A DNA stretch of 59,378 nucleotides from an uncultured bacterium (GTDB lineage: Bacteria > Verrucomicrobiota > Kiritimatiellia > PWTM01). The notes beneath the pieces were generated by a model that saw only the letters and a list, made by a program, of their open reading frames with translations, did no database searches and was not told where the DNA came from. Below, piece by piece: positions 4,452 through 23,335 of this stretch; the stretch's first letter is position 1; each line of letters begins with the position of its first letter. The translations under genes and the position numbers were made by a program. The stretch is taken from the NCBI GenBank assembly GCA_900661335.1, contig CAACVY010000001.1, forward strand, positions 1 to 59,378, given 5' to 3'.

Positions 4452-5777
4452 ATGTCGGAGCCAGTTGAGTTTGGTGTCGCAGTTATTGGTTTTGGTACGG
4501 TGGGCGCCGGCGTGGTGGATTTGCTCACGAAGCACCAGGACCTGTTAACGGAGCGAGCGGGGCTGCGCCCTTTGTTGCGGGGCGTGGGAGATTTGGATTT
4601 AGACCGCCCTCGCGGCGTGCGGGTGGATCGATCGCTATTGACTCGGGATGTGGAGGGGCTGATCCGACGCCCGGACGTGCACATTGTCGTGGAAACAGTG
4701 GGGGGAACCAAAGCGGCTCGGGACATTGTGTTAGCCGCATTGCGTGAGAGGAAGCCCGTGGTGACGGCGAACAAGGCGTTGTTGGCCGAGCAAGGGCCAG
4801 AGTTGTTTCAGGTCGCTCGGGACCACGGTGCGGGAATTTATTTCGAGGCGTCGGTGGCGGGGGGGGTGCCGGTCATCCGGGCCGTGCGCGAGGGGTTGGT
4901 GGCGAACCGGATTGCGCGGATTTACGGAATTTTGAACGGCACGTGCAATTACATCCTTACTCGCATGGAAGAGGACGGGGCCACGTTCGACGCTGCGTTA
5001 CAGGCGGCGCAGCAGGCTGGCTATGCGGAGACCGACCCTTCGTTGGACGTGGACGGCATTGATACGGCGCACAAAGCAGTCATCTTGGCGTCGCTTGCGT
5101 GTGGCCGGCCGGTGCCATTTTCGGCGGTGGGCGTCGAGGGAATTCGAAGTGTGGCGACGGTGGACTTGGAGTATGCGCGGACTCTGGGCTACAGCATCAA
5201 GCTCATGGCCGTGATTCGGAACGACCCCGGGGGTGTGAGTGTCCACGTCGGCCCATGTTTGGTGCCTCGGTACCATCTTTTGGGGCAGGTGCGGGCAGAA
5301 TACAACGCAGTGCTGGTGCGCGGTGATGCGGCGGGTGACACCGTGTACTGTGGGCGCGGAGCGGGCCGGTATCCGACCGCTAGCGCGATCGTGAGCGACA
5401 TCATGGATGCGGCCCGGCGCCGTCAGTATGCGGAGGCCCACCCAGATGCGTTTCGGGGAGAACCGCCGAAGATCCGGGCTGACGCTTATGACCGGGCACG
5501 TTGGTACATTCGCTTGATGCTCATGGATCGGCCTGGTATGTTGGCGCGCGCCGCGGACGTATTCGGACGGCACGAGATCAGTTTGGCGTCCGTAGTCCAG
5601 CGGGAAGGATGGCACGACACGTATGTGCCGGTGCTATTCTTGACTCATCCGGCCATGTACGGCGCGGTGCGACGGGCAGTTCGGGAACTGGCCCGGTTGG
5701 AAGGCATCGGAGGCCTGCCAGTATGCTTCCGGATTGAGGACCTGGCAGGGGACGAAGTTCCTCTATCGTCCCGATAA
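4452..5777 (+). CDS. hom: Homoserine dehydrogenase with C-terminal ACT domain
   Basis: GFGTVG, VVTANK, FEASVAGGVP, GILNGTCNYIL, GRGAG and ACT-like DRPGMLA motifs. Confidence 0.95.
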   Translation: MSEPVEFGVAVIGFGTVGAGVVDLLTKHQDLLTERAGLRPLLRGVGDLDLDRPRGVRVDRSLLTRDVEGLIRRPDVHIVVETVGGTKAARDIVLAALRERKPVVTANKALLAEQGPELFQVARDHGAGIYFEASVAGGVPVIRAVREGLVANRIARIYGILNGTCNYILTRMEEDGATFDAALQAAQQAGYAETDPSLDVDGIDTAHKAVILASLACGRPVPFSAVGVEGIRSVATVDLEYARTLGYSIKLMAVIRNDPGGVSVHVGPCLVPRYHLLGQVRAEYNAVLVRGDAAGDTVYCGRGAGRYPTASAIVSDIMDAARRRQYAEAHPDAFRGEPPKIRADAYDRARWYIRLMLMDRPGMLARAADVFGRHEISLASVVQREGWHDTYVPVLFLTHPAMYGAVRRAVRELARLEGIGGLPVCFRIEDLAGDEVPLSSR

Positions 5778-5797: not shown

Positions 5798-7063
5798 ATG
5801 GCGTTGTTGGTCCAAAAGTACGGTGGGACCTCGGTAGCGAACGCCGAGTGTATGCGGAATGTGGCCCAGCGGATCGCGCGAACTCGGTCCGAAGGGCATC
5901 AGGTGGTGGTGGTCGTTAGCGCGATGGGCGACACGACGGACGACTTGATCGCGCTGGCCAAGCAGGTGAATCCGGATCCCGACCCACGGGAGATGGACAT
6001 GCTGCTGGCCACGGGCGAGCAAGTGTCCATCGCGATTTTAACGATGGCGCTGCACCACATCGGCGTTCCGGCGATTTCGTTCACGGGTCCCCAAGCGGGA
6101 ATTTTTGCTGAAAGCGTTCACCTGAAGGGCCGGATTATCGACGTACGTCCCAAGCGAATCGTGGAAGCGTTGCGCCATGGCAAGGTGGTGATCGTGGCGG
6201 GGTTTCAAGGTTTGGATGAACAGGAGGACATCGTGACGCTTGGCCGCGGCGGATCGGACATGACCGCGGTGGCGTTGGCTTGGGCGCTCAAAGCAGACCG
6301 GTGCCAGTTCTTCAAGGACGTGCGCGGGGTCTTTACCGCGGATCCGCGCATCGTTCCAGAAGCACGAAAACTGGACGAGATTTCTTATGATGAGATGCTG
6401 GAATTGGCGAGCATGGGTGCCGCCGTGTTGCAATCTCGTGCGGTGGAGTTCGCCAAGCAGTATGGCGTGCCCCTTGAAGTGCTGTCCAGCTTCGAAGACG
6501 AACCGGGTACCATCGTGCGAGAAGAGGTGAAAGCTATGGAACATGTGGTGGTGCGTGGAGTCGCGGCGGATCGAAATCAGGCGAAGATCACGATTTTGAA
6601 GGTTCCGGACCGGCCGGGGATCGCGGCGACGATTTTCGACGCGATCGCTCGTGCCAACGTCAACGTCGACATGATTGTGCTGAACGTCCGCTCGCAAGGG
6701 CAGTTAGCGGACCTTTCCTTTACCGTTCCCGAAGGGGATCTAAAGGTCGCCTTGAAGGCGGTGCAGTCGGTCGTTCCCGAGGTGTCGTCGGAGGGCGTCA
6801 TCTACGACACGAACATCGCGAAGGTCAGCATCGTGGGGGTAGGCATGCGTAGCCACTCGGGCATCGCGGCACGCATGTTCTCGGCATTGGCCAAGGCCGG
6901 CATTGACATCCACATGATTTCCACTTCGGAAATCAAGATCTCGGTGGTGATTCCTAAGGAAAAAGCTGATGAGGCGGTTCGGGTACTGCACCGTGAATTC
7001 CGGTTGGACCGGCCCGTGACCACGGTGCGCACGCGGGTAGTCCGCCGGCGGAGCCGTTCATGA
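5798..7063 (+). CDS. lysC: Aspartate kinase
   Basis: VQKYGGTSV, VVSAMG, TLGRGGSD and two ACT domains (ISTSEIKIS). Confidence 0.96.
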   Translation: MALLVQKYGGTSVANAECMRNVAQRIARTRSEGHQVVVVVSAMGDTTDDLIALAKQVNPDPDPREMDMLLATGEQVSIAILTMALHHIGVPAISFTGPQAGIFAESVHLKGRIIDVRPKRIVEALRHGKVVIVAGFQGLDEQEDIVTLGRGGSDMTAVALAWALKADRCQFFKDVRGVFTADPRIVPEARKLDEISYDEMLELASMGAAVLQSRAVEFAKQYGVPLEVLSSFEDEPGTIVREEVKAMEHVVVRGVAADRNQAKITILKVPDRPGIAATIFDAIARANVNVDMIVLNVRSQGQLADLSFTVPEGDLKVALKAVQSVVPEVSSEGVIYDTNIAKVSIVGVGMRSHSGIAARMFSALAKAGIDIHMISTSEIKISVVIPKEKADEAVRVLHREFRLDRPVTTVRTRVVRRRSRS

Positions 7064-18471: not shown

Positions 18472-18742
18472 GTACGACCTTTCTCGAACATTAGAGCCAT
18501 TTATACCGGAATCTGACCATTCTGTCGCGCCCAACGGTCGATAGTGAGCCGGTTGCGCTGTTCAGGATGCGGGCTTCAAAAGCTGGTAAGGCCCCAATGC
18601 CGAAAACGGGCTGACCCCGCCCCCCGCTCGAAACCGCCGATTTTCTCACTCTCGATCCGTTCGGTCCCGCAGCACACGCGTATTGTTTAGACCCTCCGCA
18701 TCTGGACGCGGGGAGGCGTTGCGCCGCAGATCGAAACGGCGT

Positions 18743-18796
18743 GGAGGGTCGGGCTCCACCCCGACCCGATCCGGACGCGGTGGAACGCGTCCCTCC
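18743..18796. repeat. Inverted pair of 24-nt REP-like palindromic units
   Basis: GGAGGGTCGGGCTCCACCCCGACC (18743-18766, +) and GGAGGGACGCGTTCCACCGCGTCC (18773-18796, -) share a head and loop but have different, fully complementary stems. Confidence 0.7.
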
Positions 18797-19063
18797 AGGC
18801 TCGAACTGGGCCGGGCGCCTTTCCTGCCCCGCGCTCCCTCGCCTCTCGCCCCAGCCTCCGAGCCTCTCGCGGCTTTGCAGCGCGATCGGTTCTCCGATGG
18901 CTTGCCGCCCCGTTGGAACGGGTCACGCCGGGAAAACAGCCGCGCAAACCGCTGTGGCGTGGCGTCGACGCCAACCGACGGCGCGGGAACTTTTTTTCGA
19001 ACGGCCTGCCAATCGCGCGGGCAATTCGGTCGAGCGGGGTCATCTCCGTACCGGAAAGCTCGA

Positions 19064-20584
19064 TCAGAAGTAGATATCCCGTTCGCCGGCCGCGACGCGT
19101 TGATAGGCAGCGTCAAACGCGGGCCACCACCGGGGCATAGTGCGGCGGACTTCTCCGATCTCGCGCTGGAGGACTCTTTCGCCGGCTTCTCGTGTCGGCT
19201 CGCTGGCAAAATCGTCGAGCCATTCGCGGTAGGTGAGGATCGCGTTGAGCTTACAGAATCGGGCCTCCGCTCCGCTGCGCAACAGGTCCATGATGCATTG
19301 TCCGGTTCGTCCGCAGCGATAGCCGGCGGTACAGAACGACACAATCAAGCCCATCTCGGCGAGATCCCGCACCAAATCGTCCAGCGAGCGGGTGTCGCCC
19401 AACATGAACTGCTGGCGTTCCATGGATTGTTCAGAGCGCACATCGCTGGTCGAGTAACCGCCGACTGCGATCCGCGCCGAGCCATCGGTCTGCGTAACGC
19501 CCAACTGCAATAGGCGCCGCCGGACGTCGGGCGGTTCGCGAGCCGTCAGGATCATGCCCGTGTAAGGGACGGCCAACCGCAACAGCACGACGATTCGCTC
19601 CATGTCCGTATCCGATACGCGCCATCGGGTTTCTTGGACATATGGGGCGTGGTCGGCCGGCTCGAGGCGGGGGAACGATATCGTATGCGGCCCGACGCCG
19701 AACACCCGTTCCAGTTCGATCGCGTGCGCCAACAAGCCCATGACTTCGAACTTCCAATCTCCGAGCCCGAACAATGCACCAATACCGACGTCGTCAATGC
19801 CCGCGGCCATCGCCCGGTGCATGGTGTACAATCGCCACGAGTAATTGGCCTTGAACGCCGCCGGATGAACCTGCCGGTACAGTTCCGGATCGTACGTTTC
19901 TTGGAACACCTGGTACGTACCCAGCCCAGCCTCGTGGAGACGACGAAGTTCTTCGATGCGCAGCGGGGGCGCATTGACGTTGACACGACGGATGGATCCC
20001 CAGCCGACGCGTGCACGGACCCGCACCGAGTAGATCGTCCGGATGCACTCGCAGATGAAGTCCACGTCCATGGACGGATGTTCGCCGAAGACAATGATCA
20101 GCCGTTTATGGCCAATGCGGCCCGCGAGCACTTCCACTTCGTTCCGTAGCTCCGTCATGCTCAATACCCGGCGGTCCATGTGCCGGTTCTCCACGCGTAG
20201 GCCACAGTACAGGCAGTTGTTGACGCAGCAATTGCCGATGTAGAGGGGGGCGAACGTGACGATGCGCCGGTCGTAGACCTTCAACTTGATTTCCGCGGCG
20301 ACGGTGCGCATCTCCTCCCAGAGGGCGGGGTCGGTGACGTGGAGGAGCGTTGCCAATTCGTCCAGGGATAGCGTGTGAATCGCTCGGGCCTTGGCCAAGA
20401 TGTCCCGTACCCGTTGGGCATCGGGTGGCTGTTCCGCCGCGCGCTGCAAGTGTGCACGAATCGCGTTGGGGTCGATAAAATCCCGGCCGCCCGGTCGCCA
20501 AGCGGCGATTTCATCCATGTTGATTCGACTTTGGGCCCAGCTGGCCACGTCGTGAGTCACTTGCGAGGATGTCGGACTCGTCAT
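19064..20584 (-). CDS. hydG: [FeFe]-hydrogenase H-cluster radical SAM maturase HydG
   Basis: FAPLY-x3-CVNNCLYC radical SAM motif, FQETY, GPHTISFPR and C-terminal auxiliary-cluster motif FCTAGYRC-x19-C. ATGA overlap with hydF. Confidence 0.93.
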   Translation of the reverse strand: MTSPTSSQVTHDVASWAQSRINMDEIAAWRPGGRDFIDPNAIRAHLQRAAEQPPDAQRVRDILAKARAIHTLSLDELATLLHVTDPALWEEMRTVAAEIKLKVYDRRIVTFAPLYIGNCCVNNCLYCGLRVENRHMDRRVLSMTELRNEVEVLAGRIGHKRLIIVFGEHPSMDVDFICECIRTIYSVRVRARVGWGSIRRVNVNAPPLRIEELRRLHEAGLGTYQVFQETYDPELYRQVHPAAFKANYSWRLYTMHRAMAAGIDDVGIGALFGLGDWKFEVMGLLAHAIELERVFGVGPHTISFPRLEPADHAPYVQETRWRVSDTDMERIVVLLRLAVPYTGMILTAREPPDVRRRLLQLGVTQTDGSARIAVGGYSTSDVRSEQSMERQQFMLGDTRSLDDLVRDLAEMGLIVSFCTAGYRCGRTGQCIMDLLRSGAEARFCKLNAILTYREWLDDFASEPTREAGERVLQREIGEVRRTMPRWWPAFDAAYQRVAAGERDIYF

Positions 20585-21843
20585 AGGGGAACCTCCGCCA
20601 TGGGGTTCGCCGCCGCGCGAAAGGCGCGATAGGCATTCGGAAATGGTTCGAGCACGCGATCGAGGACTCCCCGGGCCAACGAGATGGCCAAGCCATAGTT
20701 CGTGATCGGCACTCCGGCTTCCCGAGCACGCTCGATGCGCGTCAGCGTTTCGCGTCGGGTAAGCATGCAGGATCCACAATGGACCACTACGTCGTAGCCG
20801 CTCAAATCATCGGGGTAATCCCGCCCCTGCATATACTCGATGCACAGTTCGGCGCCCACCATGGATCGCAGCCATCGGGGGAGCTTCGATCGGCCGATGT
20901 CATCCTCCAATGGGTGGTGAGAGCAAGTCTCGGCGATCAGCACGCGGCTCTGGGGACGCAAGCGCGTGAGCGCCGCTGCGCCCCGAGCGAGCTCGTCTAG
21001 ATCGCCTCGGGCACGGGCCATGAGAATGGAGAACGTCGTGCACCGAATACCTGCGGGTGTGGAACGGACCATCATATCTACGACTTGCGAGTCGCACACC
21101 ACGAGGTCCGGAGGACGCGGAAGGCTGGCGAGGGTCTCGGCGTAGCGGCATTCTTTCACAACCGTCACCACCAAGTCGTGATCCAAGGCATCGCGGATCG
21201 CTTGCACCTGCGGCAGAATCAACCGGCCGCGAGGAGCGGAAATGTCAATCGGGACGATCAGCACCAGCCAGCCACCCTTGGGAAGCAAATCGCCGAGCAA
21301 GGGCGGAACCGCCAGCACGGCATCCGGCAGCGCCTGTTCGAGTAGCCGTCGGAACCGGCGTGCAATGTCCTCGCGCTGCGCCGCGTCGACCGCGCACGCC
21401 GTGATCCAGCCCACGGTGGATTTGGCGAGACTGTCCTTTTGAATTTCTGAAACGGGCCCGAGGTCGGACTTGTTGACGACACCCACCACCGGCACCCGGC
21501 GCGCTCGGGCGGCGGCCAAAACTTCTTCTTCGGGCGGCCCCCACTGTCCAGGTTCGCATACCAACACGACTACGTCGCACCTCTGCATCGCGGCATAGGT
21601 CCGCCGGCGACGCGCTTCGCCAAGCTCGCTCACGTCGTCCAGCCCGGCGGTATCCAGTAGAACCACGGGTCCGAGGGGCCATAACTCCATCGACTTTTCC
21701 ACTACGTCCGTGGTCGTTCCCGGGATTGGCGACGTGATCGCGAGGTCTTGCCCGACCAGGTAGTTCATCAGGCTGGATTTGCCGACATTCGTCCGGCCGA
21801 AGAATCCGATGTGCAAGCGCAGTGATTTGGGTGCGGTGTTCAT
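20581..21843 (-). CDS. hydF: [FeFe]-hydrogenase maturation GTPase HydF
   Basis: GRTNVGKSS, PGTTTD, DTAG, NKSD, APRGRLILPQ and the CSHH...HCGSC cluster motif. Confidence 0.96.
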   Translation of the reverse strand: MNTAPKSLRLHIGFFGRTNVGKSSLMNYLVGQDLAITSPIPGTTTDVVEKSMELWPLGPVVLLDTAGLDDVSELGEARRRRTYAAMQRCDVVVLVCEPGQWGPPEEEVLAAARARRVPVVGVVNKSDLGPVSEIQKDSLAKSTVGWITACAVDAAQREDIARRFRRLLEQALPDAVLAVPPLLGDLLPKGGWLVLIVPIDISAPRGRLILPQVQAIRDALDHDLVVTVVKECRYAETLASLPRPPDLVVCDSQVVDMMVRSTPAGIRCTTFSILMARARGDLDELARGAAALTRLRPQSRVLIAETCSHHPLEDDIGRSKLPRWLRSMVGAELCIEYMQGRDYPDDLSGYDVVVHCGSCMLTRRETLTRIERAREAGVPITNYGLAISLARGVLDRVLEPFPNAYRAFRAAANPMAEVPL

Positions 21844-22130
21844 GGGGAAGGGGGAGGGGTGGCTGGTGGAACCTCCGGTGGGGATGTCTTTGCGAGCGCG
21901 GAGCGGACAGTGACCCCTTCGACTCGGCCGAGCCGACCCGTGAGTTGGCCAAGCTCGTCGGTGGTGGCATCCACGACCAGGGTGATAATGTGGAGTCCCC
22001 TCCGGGGATAGGGCAATCCGAGGCGCGCGACGATCAAATCTCCATGATCGGACAACACGCGGTTGACCTCCGCAGCGACCCGCTGACGGTTTTCAACGAT
22101 AATCCCGACAAACCCTAAACGCTTCTCCAT
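21840..22130 (-). CDS. TM1266-family iron-only hydrogenase system putative regulator (ACT/NikR-C-like fold)
   Basis: MEKRLGFVGIIVE...VNRVLS...ARLGLPY...LTGRLGRVEGVTVRS pattern. First gene of the hydF-hydG operon, with a GGAG SD. Confidence 0.88.
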   Translation of the reverse strand: MEKRLGFVGIIVENRQRVAAEVNRVLSDHGDLIVARLGLPYPRRGLHIITLVVDATTDELGQLTGRLGRVEGVTVRSALAKTSPPEVPPATPPPSP

Positions 22131-22260
22131 GGACTACTCCTGGTGGTGCGAACGGTAGTCTGAGGAAGGTGTTCGACCGCATGGGCCGGACTGGCCACGC
22201 TCGGATGCTCACCCTCGGTGTCAGACCGACGTCCTGACCTCAGGTGCGACTACGATACCA
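22131..22260 (-). ncRNA. Candidate cis-regulatory leader RNA of the TM1266-hydF-hydG operon
   Basis: Hand-folded three-way junction plus an SD-sequestering hairpin, just downstream of an extended -10 (TGGTATCGT). See findings. Confidence 0.5.
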
Positions 22261-22459
22261 CAAAAGTTCGCAGATCGCGAAGCCCGACCAGTTTCAGGAT
22301 GTCGGCGCGCTGCTCAAAAGCCAGGAAAAAGGCGAAGCCCAACGCGGCGTTTGGCCATTCAGACCCGGTTCTAAGCCAGGCTCAGTTAGCGCGTGGAATC
22401 TCGGCGGTAAGCGCAGGGGGCACGTGCAATCACCCGCCCGCCACCGCCATGGTGCGACC

Positions 22460-23335
22460 TCAGCGCAATGGCCGAGAGCGCGAGTCCCAAAGCGAACGCA
22501 GCGCGAGCCACAGAAATGTTGGGACCACCCGCAGGTATCTGGGGCCTAAGCGGCGTGGCTCTTGAAGCAATCGGTACAGCCACTGCAATCCCGATCGTTG
22601 GACCCACCTCGGCGCGTCGGTTCGAATCCCAGCCAAGATATCAAACGCCGCACCCACACCCACGAGCACCGGGGAGGGGTCCGTGGGAGCGTGGTCCGGC
22701 CACCGACGGTGCCAGTCGGCCATGAATTGCTCTTGCTTCGGCGTGCTCATGCCGACCCAGAGCAGCTCGACCCGGGCGATGCGAACTGCGCTCAACAACG
22801 CGGTCCACTCGTCTCCGGTCAGAGGACGAAAGGGCAGTGGCCAGGAGCCGGCGATCGTCACATGCGGGTACATGAAACGGACGCGATGCTCCAGGGCTTG
22901 CAGGACCTCTGGGGTGGAGCCCACAAATCCATGACGGAGGCCGGACGTGCTGGCGGCAATGTCCGGAGCGGAGGGTGGGGCGGAGGACCACATCAGGACT
23001 TTGCGCATGAGATCCGGGCCGTACACTCGACCGACGAGGGGAACTCTTCGAAGTCGTGCGAGCCACACCAAGGGCATGCCGTCTGGCACCGTCAGCCACG
23101 AGGCGTTGTGGATGTCCTTCAGCTGAGGATCGCGTTGGCACTCCACCACGCCGTGGGCGCCGGTCACGCAGACGTAGCCCCCGATGCGGTGGCGCGCGGC
23201 GCGCACGATCATTTCAGCCGCCCGGTCCAAAGTGACGGCGCTGATTTGTACGCCGGCCACGTCGAACCGTGAAGGCAGCTCAGTGGGAACCTGCAAGATC
23301 TCCGCCACGACGTTGAAACCTCTTCGACTACTCAA
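22460..23335 (-). CDS. WecB/TagA/CpsF family glycosyltransferase
   Basis: VPDGMPLVW, RVYGPDLM, VGMSTPKQE, GVGAAFD and WLYRLLQEPRRL. TTG start overlapping the upstream stop is inferred. Confidence 0.9.
   Translation of the reverse strand: MSSRRGFNVVAEILQVPTELPSRFDVAGVQISAVTLDRAAEMIVRAARHRIGGYVCVTGAHGVVECQRDPQLKDIHNASWLTVPDGMPLVWLARLRRVPLVGRVYGPDLMRKVLMWSSAPPSAPDIAASTSGLRHGFVGSTPEVLQALEHRVRFMYPHVTIAGSWPLPFRPLTGDEWTALLSAVRIARVELLWVGMSTPKQEQFMADWHRRWPDHAPTDPSPVLVGVGAAFDILAGIRTDAPRWVQRSGLQWLYRLLQEPRRLGPRYLRVVPTFLWLALRSLWDSRSRPLR

Follow-up and report, generated by a model that had tools for sequence, protein, structure and literature searches.

In the pyr operon of Bacillus, the PyrR protein binds an anti-antiterminator hairpin in the leader RNA, the terminator forms, and the operon is repressed; the HutP-hut and TRAP-trp systems act in a similar manner. 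The principle of a leader hairpin competing with an antiterminator is already known. Since a structure became available in 2006, TM1266-family proteins have carried the annotation 'putative iron-only hydrogenase system regulator', and we know of no target for this 'regulator'. The subject of this work is the 5' leader of a TM1266-hydF-hydG mRNA, encoded on the minus strand of a 59,378-nucleotide (nt) stretch of DNA from an uncultured bacterium of the Kiritimatiellia (contig CAACVY010000001.1, assembly GCA_900661335.1); the whole stretch is called the window below. The leader carries a compact hairpin of 33 nt, which recurs in front of [FeFe]-hydrogenase maturation genes and is very likely a genuine conserved cis-regulatory RNA. 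Beyond this, we advance a tentative proposal, to which we give slightly less than an even chance: TM1266-family stand-alone ACT/NikR-C-like domains may be a new class of RNA-binding attenuation proteins, in which an oligomer, possibly with a bound metabolite from H-cluster synthesis, would clamp the hairpin and terminate transcription or block translation of the hydG/hydF/hydE maturase operon in more than ten bacterial phyla.

The conserved core motif and its distribution

The core motif (Table 1) is composed of two conserved strands, S1 and S2, and an intervening stem-loop, P2; in the window it reads CCUGAGGUCAGG / GGAC-GUCG-GUCU / CUGACACCGAGGG. An earlier note, made from the letters of this DNA alone, had folded the leader into a three-way junction with helices P1 (CUGAGG 22243–22238 with CCUCAG 22165–22160), P2 (UCAGGAC-GUCG-GUCUGA, 22237–22221) and P3 (GAGGGUG 22216–22210 with CACCUUC 22171–22165). 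All strings quoted there are present at the minus-strand coordinates given for them, including TGGTATCGT at 22260–22252, GCGUGGCC/GGCCCAUGC at 22200–22179, GUAGUC at 22253–22248 and 22137–22132, and GACUAC at 22160–22155. In the terms of that note, the core motif combines the 'P1 5' strand', P2, the 'CACC linker' and the 'P3 5' strand'. Its general claim, that the [FeFe]-hydrogenase maturation genes have a dedicated cis-regulatory leader that is structured and conserved, is borne out by the relatives, as both conserved sequence and covariation are found upstream of the orthologs.

An IUPAC pattern derived from relatives matches the window once and matches none of 100 shuffles. Two covariance models were also used, R1 from 24 TM1266 leaders of related genomes and R2 from 75 sequences of other genomes, with the window left out. 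R1 finds one site in the window's own genome, namely the leader, with 36.2 bits; with R2, the window element reaches 30.5 bits (E = 1.9e-6) and the next-best match 13 bits, and the covariance-model envelope spans 22249–22209 (−). A second R1 match in this genome (contig C53, 18.9 bits, E = 0.4) is without the CUGA half and was taken as chance. Folding energy alone does not separate the leader from chance and is not used as evidence, because the z-scores are merely −1.26 for 22260–22125 and −1.55, −1.78 and −0.94 for sub-segments in this G+C-rich sequence.

A search for the TM1266 protein in 61 related genomes gives matches in 27 at E ≤ 0.001, of which 24 are strong (E ≤ 1e-24). The motif is present in the leaders of all 24 strong matches, 60–200 nt before the start codon; a simple regular expression matches 23 of them, and the remaining one has GUG for CUG. 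In a wider collection of 80 TM1266 loci from the Planctomycetes–Verrucomicrobia–Chlamydiae (PVC) phyla, Omnitrophota, Fibrobacterota, metagenome-assembled genomes (MAGs) of Clostridia and others, an upstream same-strand R1 match occurs in 72 at E ≤ 1, and in 55 of these at E ≤ 0.01. Scanning species-representative genomes with a strict pattern yields at least 120 stretches, with 81 matches among the 80 loci listed. A TM1266 open reading frame (ORF) lies within 1.5 kb downstream in 57 of the 81 matches listed; the other 24 include eight with less than 400 nt of downstream sequence, nine without a hairpin or in unrelated contexts, which are likely chance, and one equivocal case (L154). Five of the 81 listed matches stand directly before hydG (three Atribacterota records, one Treponemataceae MAG and one further MAG), and one stands before a group-A6 [FeFe] hydrogenase, in a Syntrophales MAG with a second copy before TM1266-hydG-hydE.

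Pooling started from 201 regular-expression matches, of which 149 have TM1266 within 1.2 kb and 132 of these are unique; after removal of six artefacts of the expression, 126 non-identical motif instances before TM1266 remained. Together with six non-TM1266 cases, all 132 precede TM1266 and/or HydG, HydF or HydE, and one precedes HydA. The lineages include PVC bacteria, Omnitrophota, Spirochaetota, Bacteroidota, Atribacterota, Desulfobacterota and Fibrobacterota, and, by record title, cultured strains of Mangrovibacterium, Sunxiuqinia, Gaoshiqia, Desulfovibrio and Desulfobaculum. Each genome has only one or two motif sites. An extra R1 match in genome G007 (contig C81, L054:1501–1543 (+), 31.4 bits) has CCGGA for CUGA and lies away from hyd genes, probably by chance.

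A few loci show particular arrangements. In the Syntrophales MAG (L166), the copies are at 2704–2735 and 4844–4875 (+), one of them approximately 295 nt before the gene of the group-A6 NADH-dependent [FeFe] hydrogenase; this is the only case seen of the motif before a structural hydrogenase gene. In a Desulfobaculum sp. record (L177), tandem copies at 5669–5702 and approximately 5902–5933 (+), about 230 nt apart, lie upstream of TM1266. Three Atribacterota-type loci (L189, L202 and L210) contain an ORF of 111–125 aa just after hydG, with no NCBIfam match. HydA of the window's own genome is encoded on a separate contig (C126), with no motif nearby, and HydE was not found, which carries little weight in an assembly just 68% complete.

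Structure and covariation of the hairpin

Covariation was measured over ten modelled pairs on alignment A3, which was fitted to the model and hence leans towards the modelled structure; 91.7% of the pair cells are paired in it, compared with 79.2% in shuffles, and all 500 shuffles fall short of the alignment on every one of the five measures. When the partners are slid by one column, pairing falls to 57–73%. Changes on both sides occur in seven of the ten modelled pairs, including five of the six P2 pairs, and the P2 hairpin of the earlier note is thereby supported. The two conserved strands are near-invariant (CUGmGGyrAGG and CUGArnYYAAGG), and their outer C-G and U·G pairs are invariant and therefore uninformative for covariation. 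The inner helix of two base pairs, formed by G22239/G22238 with C22217/C22218, is found with counts of GC49/GU17/AU6 and GC56/GU9/AU3 and shows compensatory variants (AG with CU, GA with UC). Frequent G·U pairs are compatible with this strand only. Together, the near-invariant nucleotides and the covarying inner helix point to a compact hairpin, in which the former 'P1 5' strand' pairs with the former 'P3 5' strand'.

In this hairpin (form A), C22218/C22217 of S2 pair with G22238/G22239, and GGG at 22214–22212 pairs with U22242, C22243 and C22244. The freely covarying P2 stem-loop caps the S1-S2 duplex. Both strands are alike when read 5' to 3' (CUG-N5-AGG and CUG-N5/6-AAGG, by inspection of A3), and because of this resemblance the duplex appears, on our own reading of the alignment rather than by computation, to be pseudo-two-fold symmetric: at both ends, a C-G and a U·G pair are followed by G-over-A and m/r-over-A mismatches.

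Two mutually exclusive folds and the output stage

S1 is the switching strand, which pairs either with S2 or, alternatively, with 22165–22160. The isolated 38-mer of the window folds as the form A hairpin with −17.2 kcal/mol. The minimum free energy (MFE) structure given by RNAfold for the 92-nt segment 22246–22155 is essentially the three-way junction (form B), with −37.4 kcal/mol, in which CACCUUCCUCAG (CACCUUC, then CUCAG) is the partner of S2 and S1. For the full window leader, constrained folds give −50.0 kcal/mol for form B and −45.1 kcal/mol for form A, a difference of 4.9 kcal/mol.

Across the motif instances, the duplex of the 13-nt S1 with the downstream leader has a mean energy of −14.6 kcal/mol, compared with −11.6 kcal/mol for a reversed-strand control (Wilcoxon p = 1.5e-12); its mean z-score against 100 mononucleotide shuffles is −1.74, and z is below −2 in 45% of the instances. 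Of the 126 leaders, 97 have a hairpin plus U tract resembling an intrinsic terminator in the interval from motif to gene, with −15 kcal/mol or lower in 87, and in shuffled leaders such sites number 15 of 126, none of them strong. The best complement of S1 is located inside the terminator hairpin in 78 of the 97; it overlaps the 5' arm by at least 4 nt in 62, the 3' arm in 5 and neither arm in 30. Furthermore, variable positions of S1 are mirrored in the complement, as in locus L098, where the CGAUAAGG variant is paired with CUUAUCG. Simultaneously, AAGGG of S2 can pair with the CCC that opens the 5' arm of the terminator. These two pairings together make the alternative fold a P1-P2-P3 junction with contiguous 3' strands of P3 and P1, and the P1 and P3 pairings of the earlier note thus have counterparts in the relatives. 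Mutually exclusive expression-platform structures are therefore present in the relatives. By inspection, a P3-type hairpin starting with AAGGG or GAGGG is kept, with differing sequences, across the leaders of family f1; the AGCA/GAA loop that had been likened to a loop-E module, and the distal stem, fall in a region that varies in the relatives.

In one relative (genome G179, L289:2991–3029 (−)), a compact motif of 33 nt with approximately 8 canonical pairs stands directly before hydG. There, the end of S2, AAGGAG, is the Shine-Dalgarno (SD) sequence, 7 nt before the AUG of hydG.

Nothing except the start codon lies beyond S2 in G179, so that hairpin formation alone can act there and would hide the SD sequence, an independent hint that the hairpin may be the OFF state. 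The three-way junction looks like an antiterminator-type conformer and the compact hairpin like an effector-bound OFF state; that stabilisation of the hairpin switches the genes OFF is, in our judgement, fairly probable. The junction of the earlier note stands as the MFE fold, and in place of a sensing aptamer it is probably the alternative, antiterminator-type conformer.

We propose that the leader would act as a cis-acting attenuator RNA at the 5' end of the TM1266-hydF-hydG mRNA. Without effector, the more stable form B would form as an antiterminator, with the genes ON. An effector acting in trans would lock the weak form A hairpin, leaving the terminator free to form and the genes OFF; in G179, the locked hairpin would hide the SD sequence in place of termination, and in the window the same two conformers exist, with no terminator. 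The effector would be the TM1266-family protein, probably as an oligomer and possibly with a small ligand, giving PyrR-like negative autoregulation of the maturase operon.

Co-occurrence with TM1266 and the candidate effector

Among the 61 related genomes, which are not independent samples, the motif is found in the very 24 that have a strong TM1266 match. R1 finds sites in exactly these 24 genomes; its positives are circular, as it was built on them, and the informative part is the 37 negatives. HydG is present in 33 of the 61, and 12 of the HydG-positive genomes are without both a strong TM1266 match and the motif, three of them showing just weak TM1266 matches. In 11 of these 12, the sequence upstream of hydG (approximately 2–3 kb in nine genomes and 300 nt in two) was scored with the filters off, and the best values are 9.3 bits (R1) and 11.7 bits (R2). 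Seven genomes have the motif before hydG and TM1266 elsewhere, and a TM1266-family gene over the cut-off is present in all seven. The TM1266 loci of five of these seven genomes give no R1 match, and the TM1266 leaders of G131 and G179 (L275 and L277) give no convincing motif match; in G179, the TM1266 gene is on another contig.

In a sample of 151 genomes of the phylum, a bona fide motif without TM1266 was not found; the two apparent cases, R1 matches in G100 and G118, both lie inside ORFs and were taken as chance. The phylum-wide R1 scan was rejected as a test of absence on account of its insensitivity: the strict filters that apply when more than 40 genomes are scanned miss real weak matches (G131 and G179 are negative there and positive with filters off), and R1 is blind to the extended variant described below. 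The leader RNA tracks TM1266, not HydG or the other maturases. A dedicated protein thus co-occurs with the RNA site, as would be the case for a PyrR-, HutP- or TRAP-like attenuator, co-occurrence being distinct from binding.

The TM1266-family protein of the window lies above the curated family cut-offs (for PF21699, 96.4 bits against 27; for TIGR03959, see Table 1) and is similar to PDB entry 2NZC (E = 1.1e-11), which places it in the TM1266 family. Its AlphaFold2 model has a mean predicted local distance difference test score (pLDDT) of 95.8, and the Foldseek neighbours are 2NZC (TM-score 0.92), the NikR C-domain (0.86), IlvN and the ACT domain of RelA. No DNA-binding or other nucleic-acid-binding domain was seen in family searches and structure comparison, so nothing else in the protein explains the 'regulator' annotation. 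Among the conserved columns of an alignment of 18 TM1266 sequences there is no invariant His or Cys, and a NikR-type metal site is for this reason unlikely. From the co-occurrence, we give an even chance to the TM1266-family protein being the effector and binding partner of the leader hairpin, and favour it in this role over a metabolite. The suggestion of the earlier note that TM1266 might bind its own leader has gained support at the level of genomes, and the binding step itself is predicted from this co-occurrence.

Alternative explanations

Several points weigh against TM1266 as an RNA-binding effector, besides the circularity, the non-independence and the filter sensitivity given above. 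The nearest structural neighbours of TM1266 are small-molecule or metal-binding regulatory domains, the Foldseek matches to S6 and S10 reflect the generic ferredoxin-like fold rather than a known RNA-binding fold, no RNA-binding member of the ACT/NikR-C fold is known to us, and the consensus sequence of TM1266 has no marked basic character. Another possible role for TM1266 is that of a regulatory subunit of a maturase, inherited with the leader as one cassette and producing the same co-occurrence. In the phylum sample, 43 TM1266-positive genomes are without an R1 match, and in the leaders L270, L275, L277, L282 and a few others no motif was seen. In the window, a consensus scan together with our own finder applied to L001 gives no intrinsic terminator between 22212 and 22131 (−), as is also the case in most high-G+C relatives of the same family, and the SD region folds identically in forms A and B, with no conformer-dependent change. 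The regulatory output of the window is predicted through homology alone, and its route via translation, Rho or another process is possible.

Inspection of 39 leaders of those 43 genomes reveals that at least 16 carry a longer arrangement of approximately 100 nt or more (Table 1). From 5' to 3', it comprises a −10 box, yCUGAnnCCRRGG, a hairpin, a GCGGnGRAG-like block, a variable segment, UCGUUCUGAA-N4-6-GAGGG, a short GGG-UNCG-CCC hairpin, GGGYGnAAGGCGG and a terminator, and thus has two CUGA...RGGG blocks. This extended variant is not recognised by R1 or R2, twenty such loci compared with Rfam at E ≤ 1 give tRNAs only, and RNAalifold on 11 of the leaders gives no convincing consensus (−5.3). 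Its complexity looks more riboswitch-like and is the best argument for a metabolite-sensing RNA, adding to the points that weigh against TM1266.

A metabolite- or ion-sensing riboswitch, in which the conserved hairpin or its extended version binds a small molecule, the terminator then forms, and TM1266 is merely the first gene of the operon, is a serious possibility, though one that we hold to be somewhat improbable; candidate ligands tied to H-cluster synthesis or redox state are Tyr, Cys, S-adenosylmethionine (SAM), 5'-deoxyadenosine, Fe2+, GTP, NAD(H) and p-cresol. Such a riboswitch would have the classic OFF architecture seen here, with a conserved 5' sensor backed by covariation, mutually exclusive antiterminator and terminator, and a coherent gene set, and it would account for the motif before hydG or hydA without TM1266 in cis, for the tandem copies in the Desulfobaculum leader, for the several conserved blocks and hairpins of the extended variant, and for the lack of any RNA-binding precedent known to us for the TM1266 fold. 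However, the motif is found in 0 of the 12 HydG-positive genomes without a strong TM1266 match, including the 11 scored with filters off, and TM1266 is present in 7 of 7 genomes with an unlinked motif. In addition, the one or two sites per genome speak against a riboswitch, the smallest version, in G179, is small and weak for a selective aptamer, and the pseudo-dyad suits an oligomeric protein. The model of the earlier note, in which the three-way junction is the ligand-bound aptamer that switches the genes ON and the window acts through a translational platform formed by GACUAC and GUAGUC, is unlikely. The junction is indeed the MFE of the 92-nt segment, the partners for P1 and P3 are found side by side in relatives, and in the extended variant a downstream YCCC pairs with AGGG of S2 in a short conserved hairpin; nevertheless, the helix strands of P1 and P3 are near-invariant, which is unusual for aptamer helices, the GG/YY covariation backs S1-S2 pairing, and the hairpin alone can act in G179. 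The GACUAC/GUAGUC stem does appear in the local MFE structure of the window (−10.4 kcal/mol, z −0.94), but it is not seen in three leaders of the same genus, the two constrained folds do not differ at the SD sequence, and intrinsic terminators, not translational platforms, prevail among the relatives. The upstream GUAGUC at 22253–22248, offered as an alternative partner, overlaps the −10 box and transcription start site (TSS) and is probably not transcribed. Our own idea of an anti-SD pairing, UUCCU of 22168–22164 with AGGAG, is likewise unsupported, as the constrained folds leave the SD hairpin unchanged.

Two further explanations were considered. An effector-independent element or a site for another trans factor, such as a hairpin for 5' stability or processing, a signal for pausing or Rho loading, or a target of a global RNA-binding protein like CsrA, with two GGA-like sequences approximately 20 nt apart, would agree with the position at the extreme 5' end and with the two AGG/AAGG elements, but a constitutive hairpin explains neither why S1 keeps its complementarity to the 5' arms of terminators nor why the motif is tied exclusively to maturase operons and to genomes with TM1266, and conservation reaches well past GGA; we consider it very improbable. 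A DNA operator for a transcription factor, overlapping the TSS, is suggested by the place of the motif immediately downstream of the −10 box and is least credible of all, to the point of being nearly negligible: compensatory changes keep the pairing in a stem of variable length and sequence, the frequent G·U pairs would be A·C on the other strand, the conserved strands are direct rather than inverted repeats in DNA, and the coupling to a terminator is a property of RNA.

Promoter, locus and neighbouring genes

The −10 assignment of the earlier note fits the relatives, in which TANNNT boxes have a positional peak 7–14 nt upstream of the motif; a box ending 3–14 nt upstream is present in 68 of 126 related leaders. 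A sigma-70 scan requiring a −35 box found no promoter at the leader. The terminator-like site at 22281–22267 is predicted to close the glycosyltransferase transcript just ahead of the leader promoter, and because of this site and the −10 box 7 nt upstream, the motif probably forms the extreme 5' end of the mRNA. In the consensus scan, the minus-strand terminator-like sites near the leader are solely upstream ones, this site and 22512–22497.

The order of the genes on the minus strand is glycosyltransferase, an intergenic region of 329 nt, the TM1266-family gene, hydF, hydG, an ORF of 232 aa, and leuS. The longest hydG ORF overlaps hydF by approximately 200 nt and its HydG family match starts only at residue 99, from which the real start is probably near 20485. 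The 232-aa ORF between hydG and leuS (18646–19344 (−)) has no NCBIfam or Pfam match and may not be a real gene.

Table 1. Features of the leader, its surroundings in the window, and loci with the extended variant
Feature	Position	Strand	Basis or remark
WecB/TagA/CpsF-family glycosyltransferase ORF	23407–22460	−	upstream neighbour of the leader
Terminator-like hairpin with U tract (UUCGCGAUCUGCGAA CUUUUGUGGU)	22267–22281	−	consensus scan
Extended −10-like box TGGTATCGT (−10 = TATCGT, 22257–22252)	22252–22260	−	sequence; ends 7 nt ahead of C22244
Conserved core motif, form A hairpin, 33 nt (CCUGAGGUCAGG, stem-loop, CUGACACCGAGGG)	22212–22244	−	pattern and covariance models
5' strand S1, CCUGAGGUCAGG, consensus yCUGmGGyrAGG	22233–22244	−	alignments A1 and A3; duplex-energy test against the downstream leader
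P2 stem-loop, GGAC 22234–22231 with GUCU 22226–22223, loop GUCG	22223–22234	−	covariation on A3
3' strand S2, CUGACACCGAGGG, consensus CUGArnYYAAGGG	22212–22224	−	fold and pair counts
Variable distal hairpin of P3, GCGUGGCC...GGCCCAUGC	22179–22200	−	no sequence conservation
CACCUUCCUCAG, contiguous 3' strands of P3 (22171–22165) and P1 (22165–22160)	22160–22171	−	MFE of the 92-nt segment
Candidate ribosome-binding region: GACUAC 22160–22155 / GUAGUC 22137–22132, SD AGGAG 22141–22137, AUG 22130–22128	22128–22160	−	local fold; regulatory role is a candidate
TM1266-family gene, 96 aa, ACT/NikR-C-like protein	21840–22130	−	TIGR03959, 101.3 bits (cut-off 60.8)
hydF, H-cluster maturation GTPase	20581–21843	−	TIGR03918, 500.9 bits
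hydG, radical-SAM maturase, longest ORF with TTG start	19064–20779	−	TIGR03955, 452.4 bits
Extended-variant leaders	L265, L267, L269, L281, L304–L312, L315, L318, L321		TM1266 genes in other families of the same phylum

Relation to described RNA families and significance

Rfam 15 comprises 4227 covariance models, with membership defined by the gathering threshold. At this threshold, the whole window matches only a tRNA (1646–1719), and twenty related loci give 0 matches; no Rfam 15 family matches the leader, a check that the earlier note had itself named. For 22050–22500 at E ≤ 10, there are four chance-level matches, the best with E = 0.69 and none over the core motif 22244–22212. The best is a twister-P1-like match at 22336–22422 (+), with 17.2 bits against a gathering threshold of 67.2, and was taken as chance; another is a 24-nt snoRNA-like match (E = 1.2) on the opposite strand of the downstream leader. 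Full-text literature searches returned nothing on such an RNA, on RNA-level regulation of hyd genes, or on the function of TM1266. In the excerpt of PMC3543383 available, the riboswitches are those for molybdenum cofactor and B12, unrelated to hyd genes. As far as checked, the RNA family, its association with these genes and its possible protein partner are new.

The leader RNA would provide a concrete regulatory element across many anaerobe lineages. If the riboswitch explanation were true, it would add a riboswitch class that senses the state of H-cluster or redox metabolism; if TM1266 binds it, it would be the first RNA target of an ACT/NikR-C-like protein. In practical terms, the element may offer a handle for engineering H2 production and a marker for annotating hyd operons in metagenomes.

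Comparison with known systems

Compared with k-turns and tandem sheared G·A loops, the leader hairpin places rA on the 5' strand opposite GA on the 3' strand, beside a G·U/G-C stem, and a second pair of G/m-over-AA mismatches on its outer side, so that tandem purine mismatches are possible. However, a k-turn has a 3-nt bulge on one strand followed by tandem sheared G·A/A·G, between a canonical and a non-canonical stem; by inspection of A3, no such bulge is seen in the leader, whose bulges are of 1 nt and 2 nt and lie on opposite strands.

The small-aptamer OFF riboswitches (preQ1-I, guanidine-III and SAM/S-adenosylhomocysteine) resemble the leader in a short conserved 5' sensor, a single coherent pathway, and mutually exclusive antiterminator and terminator or occlusion of the SD sequence. 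The mode of switching differs: in the leader, the switching strand is the 5' strand, and the alternative three-way junction encloses the sensor. Furthermore, the leader matches no Rfam 15 family, and its distribution among genomes tracks a protein.

With the C-domain of NikR and with ACT domains (IlvN and RelA), TM1266 shares a beta-alpha-beta-beta-alpha-beta fold (TM-scores 0.75–0.86) and an oligomeric state, 2NZC having four chains. TM1266 differs in having no attached DNA-binding domain of the ribbon-helix-helix type, no catalytic domain, and no invariant His or Cys among the conserved columns of the 18 aligned sequences.

In the case of PyrR and the pyr leader, the gene of the regulator is usually the first behind the leader, as in the TM1266 operons, and on our proposal TM1266 would likewise bind a conserved hairpin, one strand of which can alternatively pair with the 5' arm of the terminator. 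The sequence and structure of the leader RNA are, however, unrelated to those of pyr, regulator and target are unlinked in some genomes, and TM1266 has the ACT/NikR-C fold whereas PyrR has the phosphoribosyltransferase fold.

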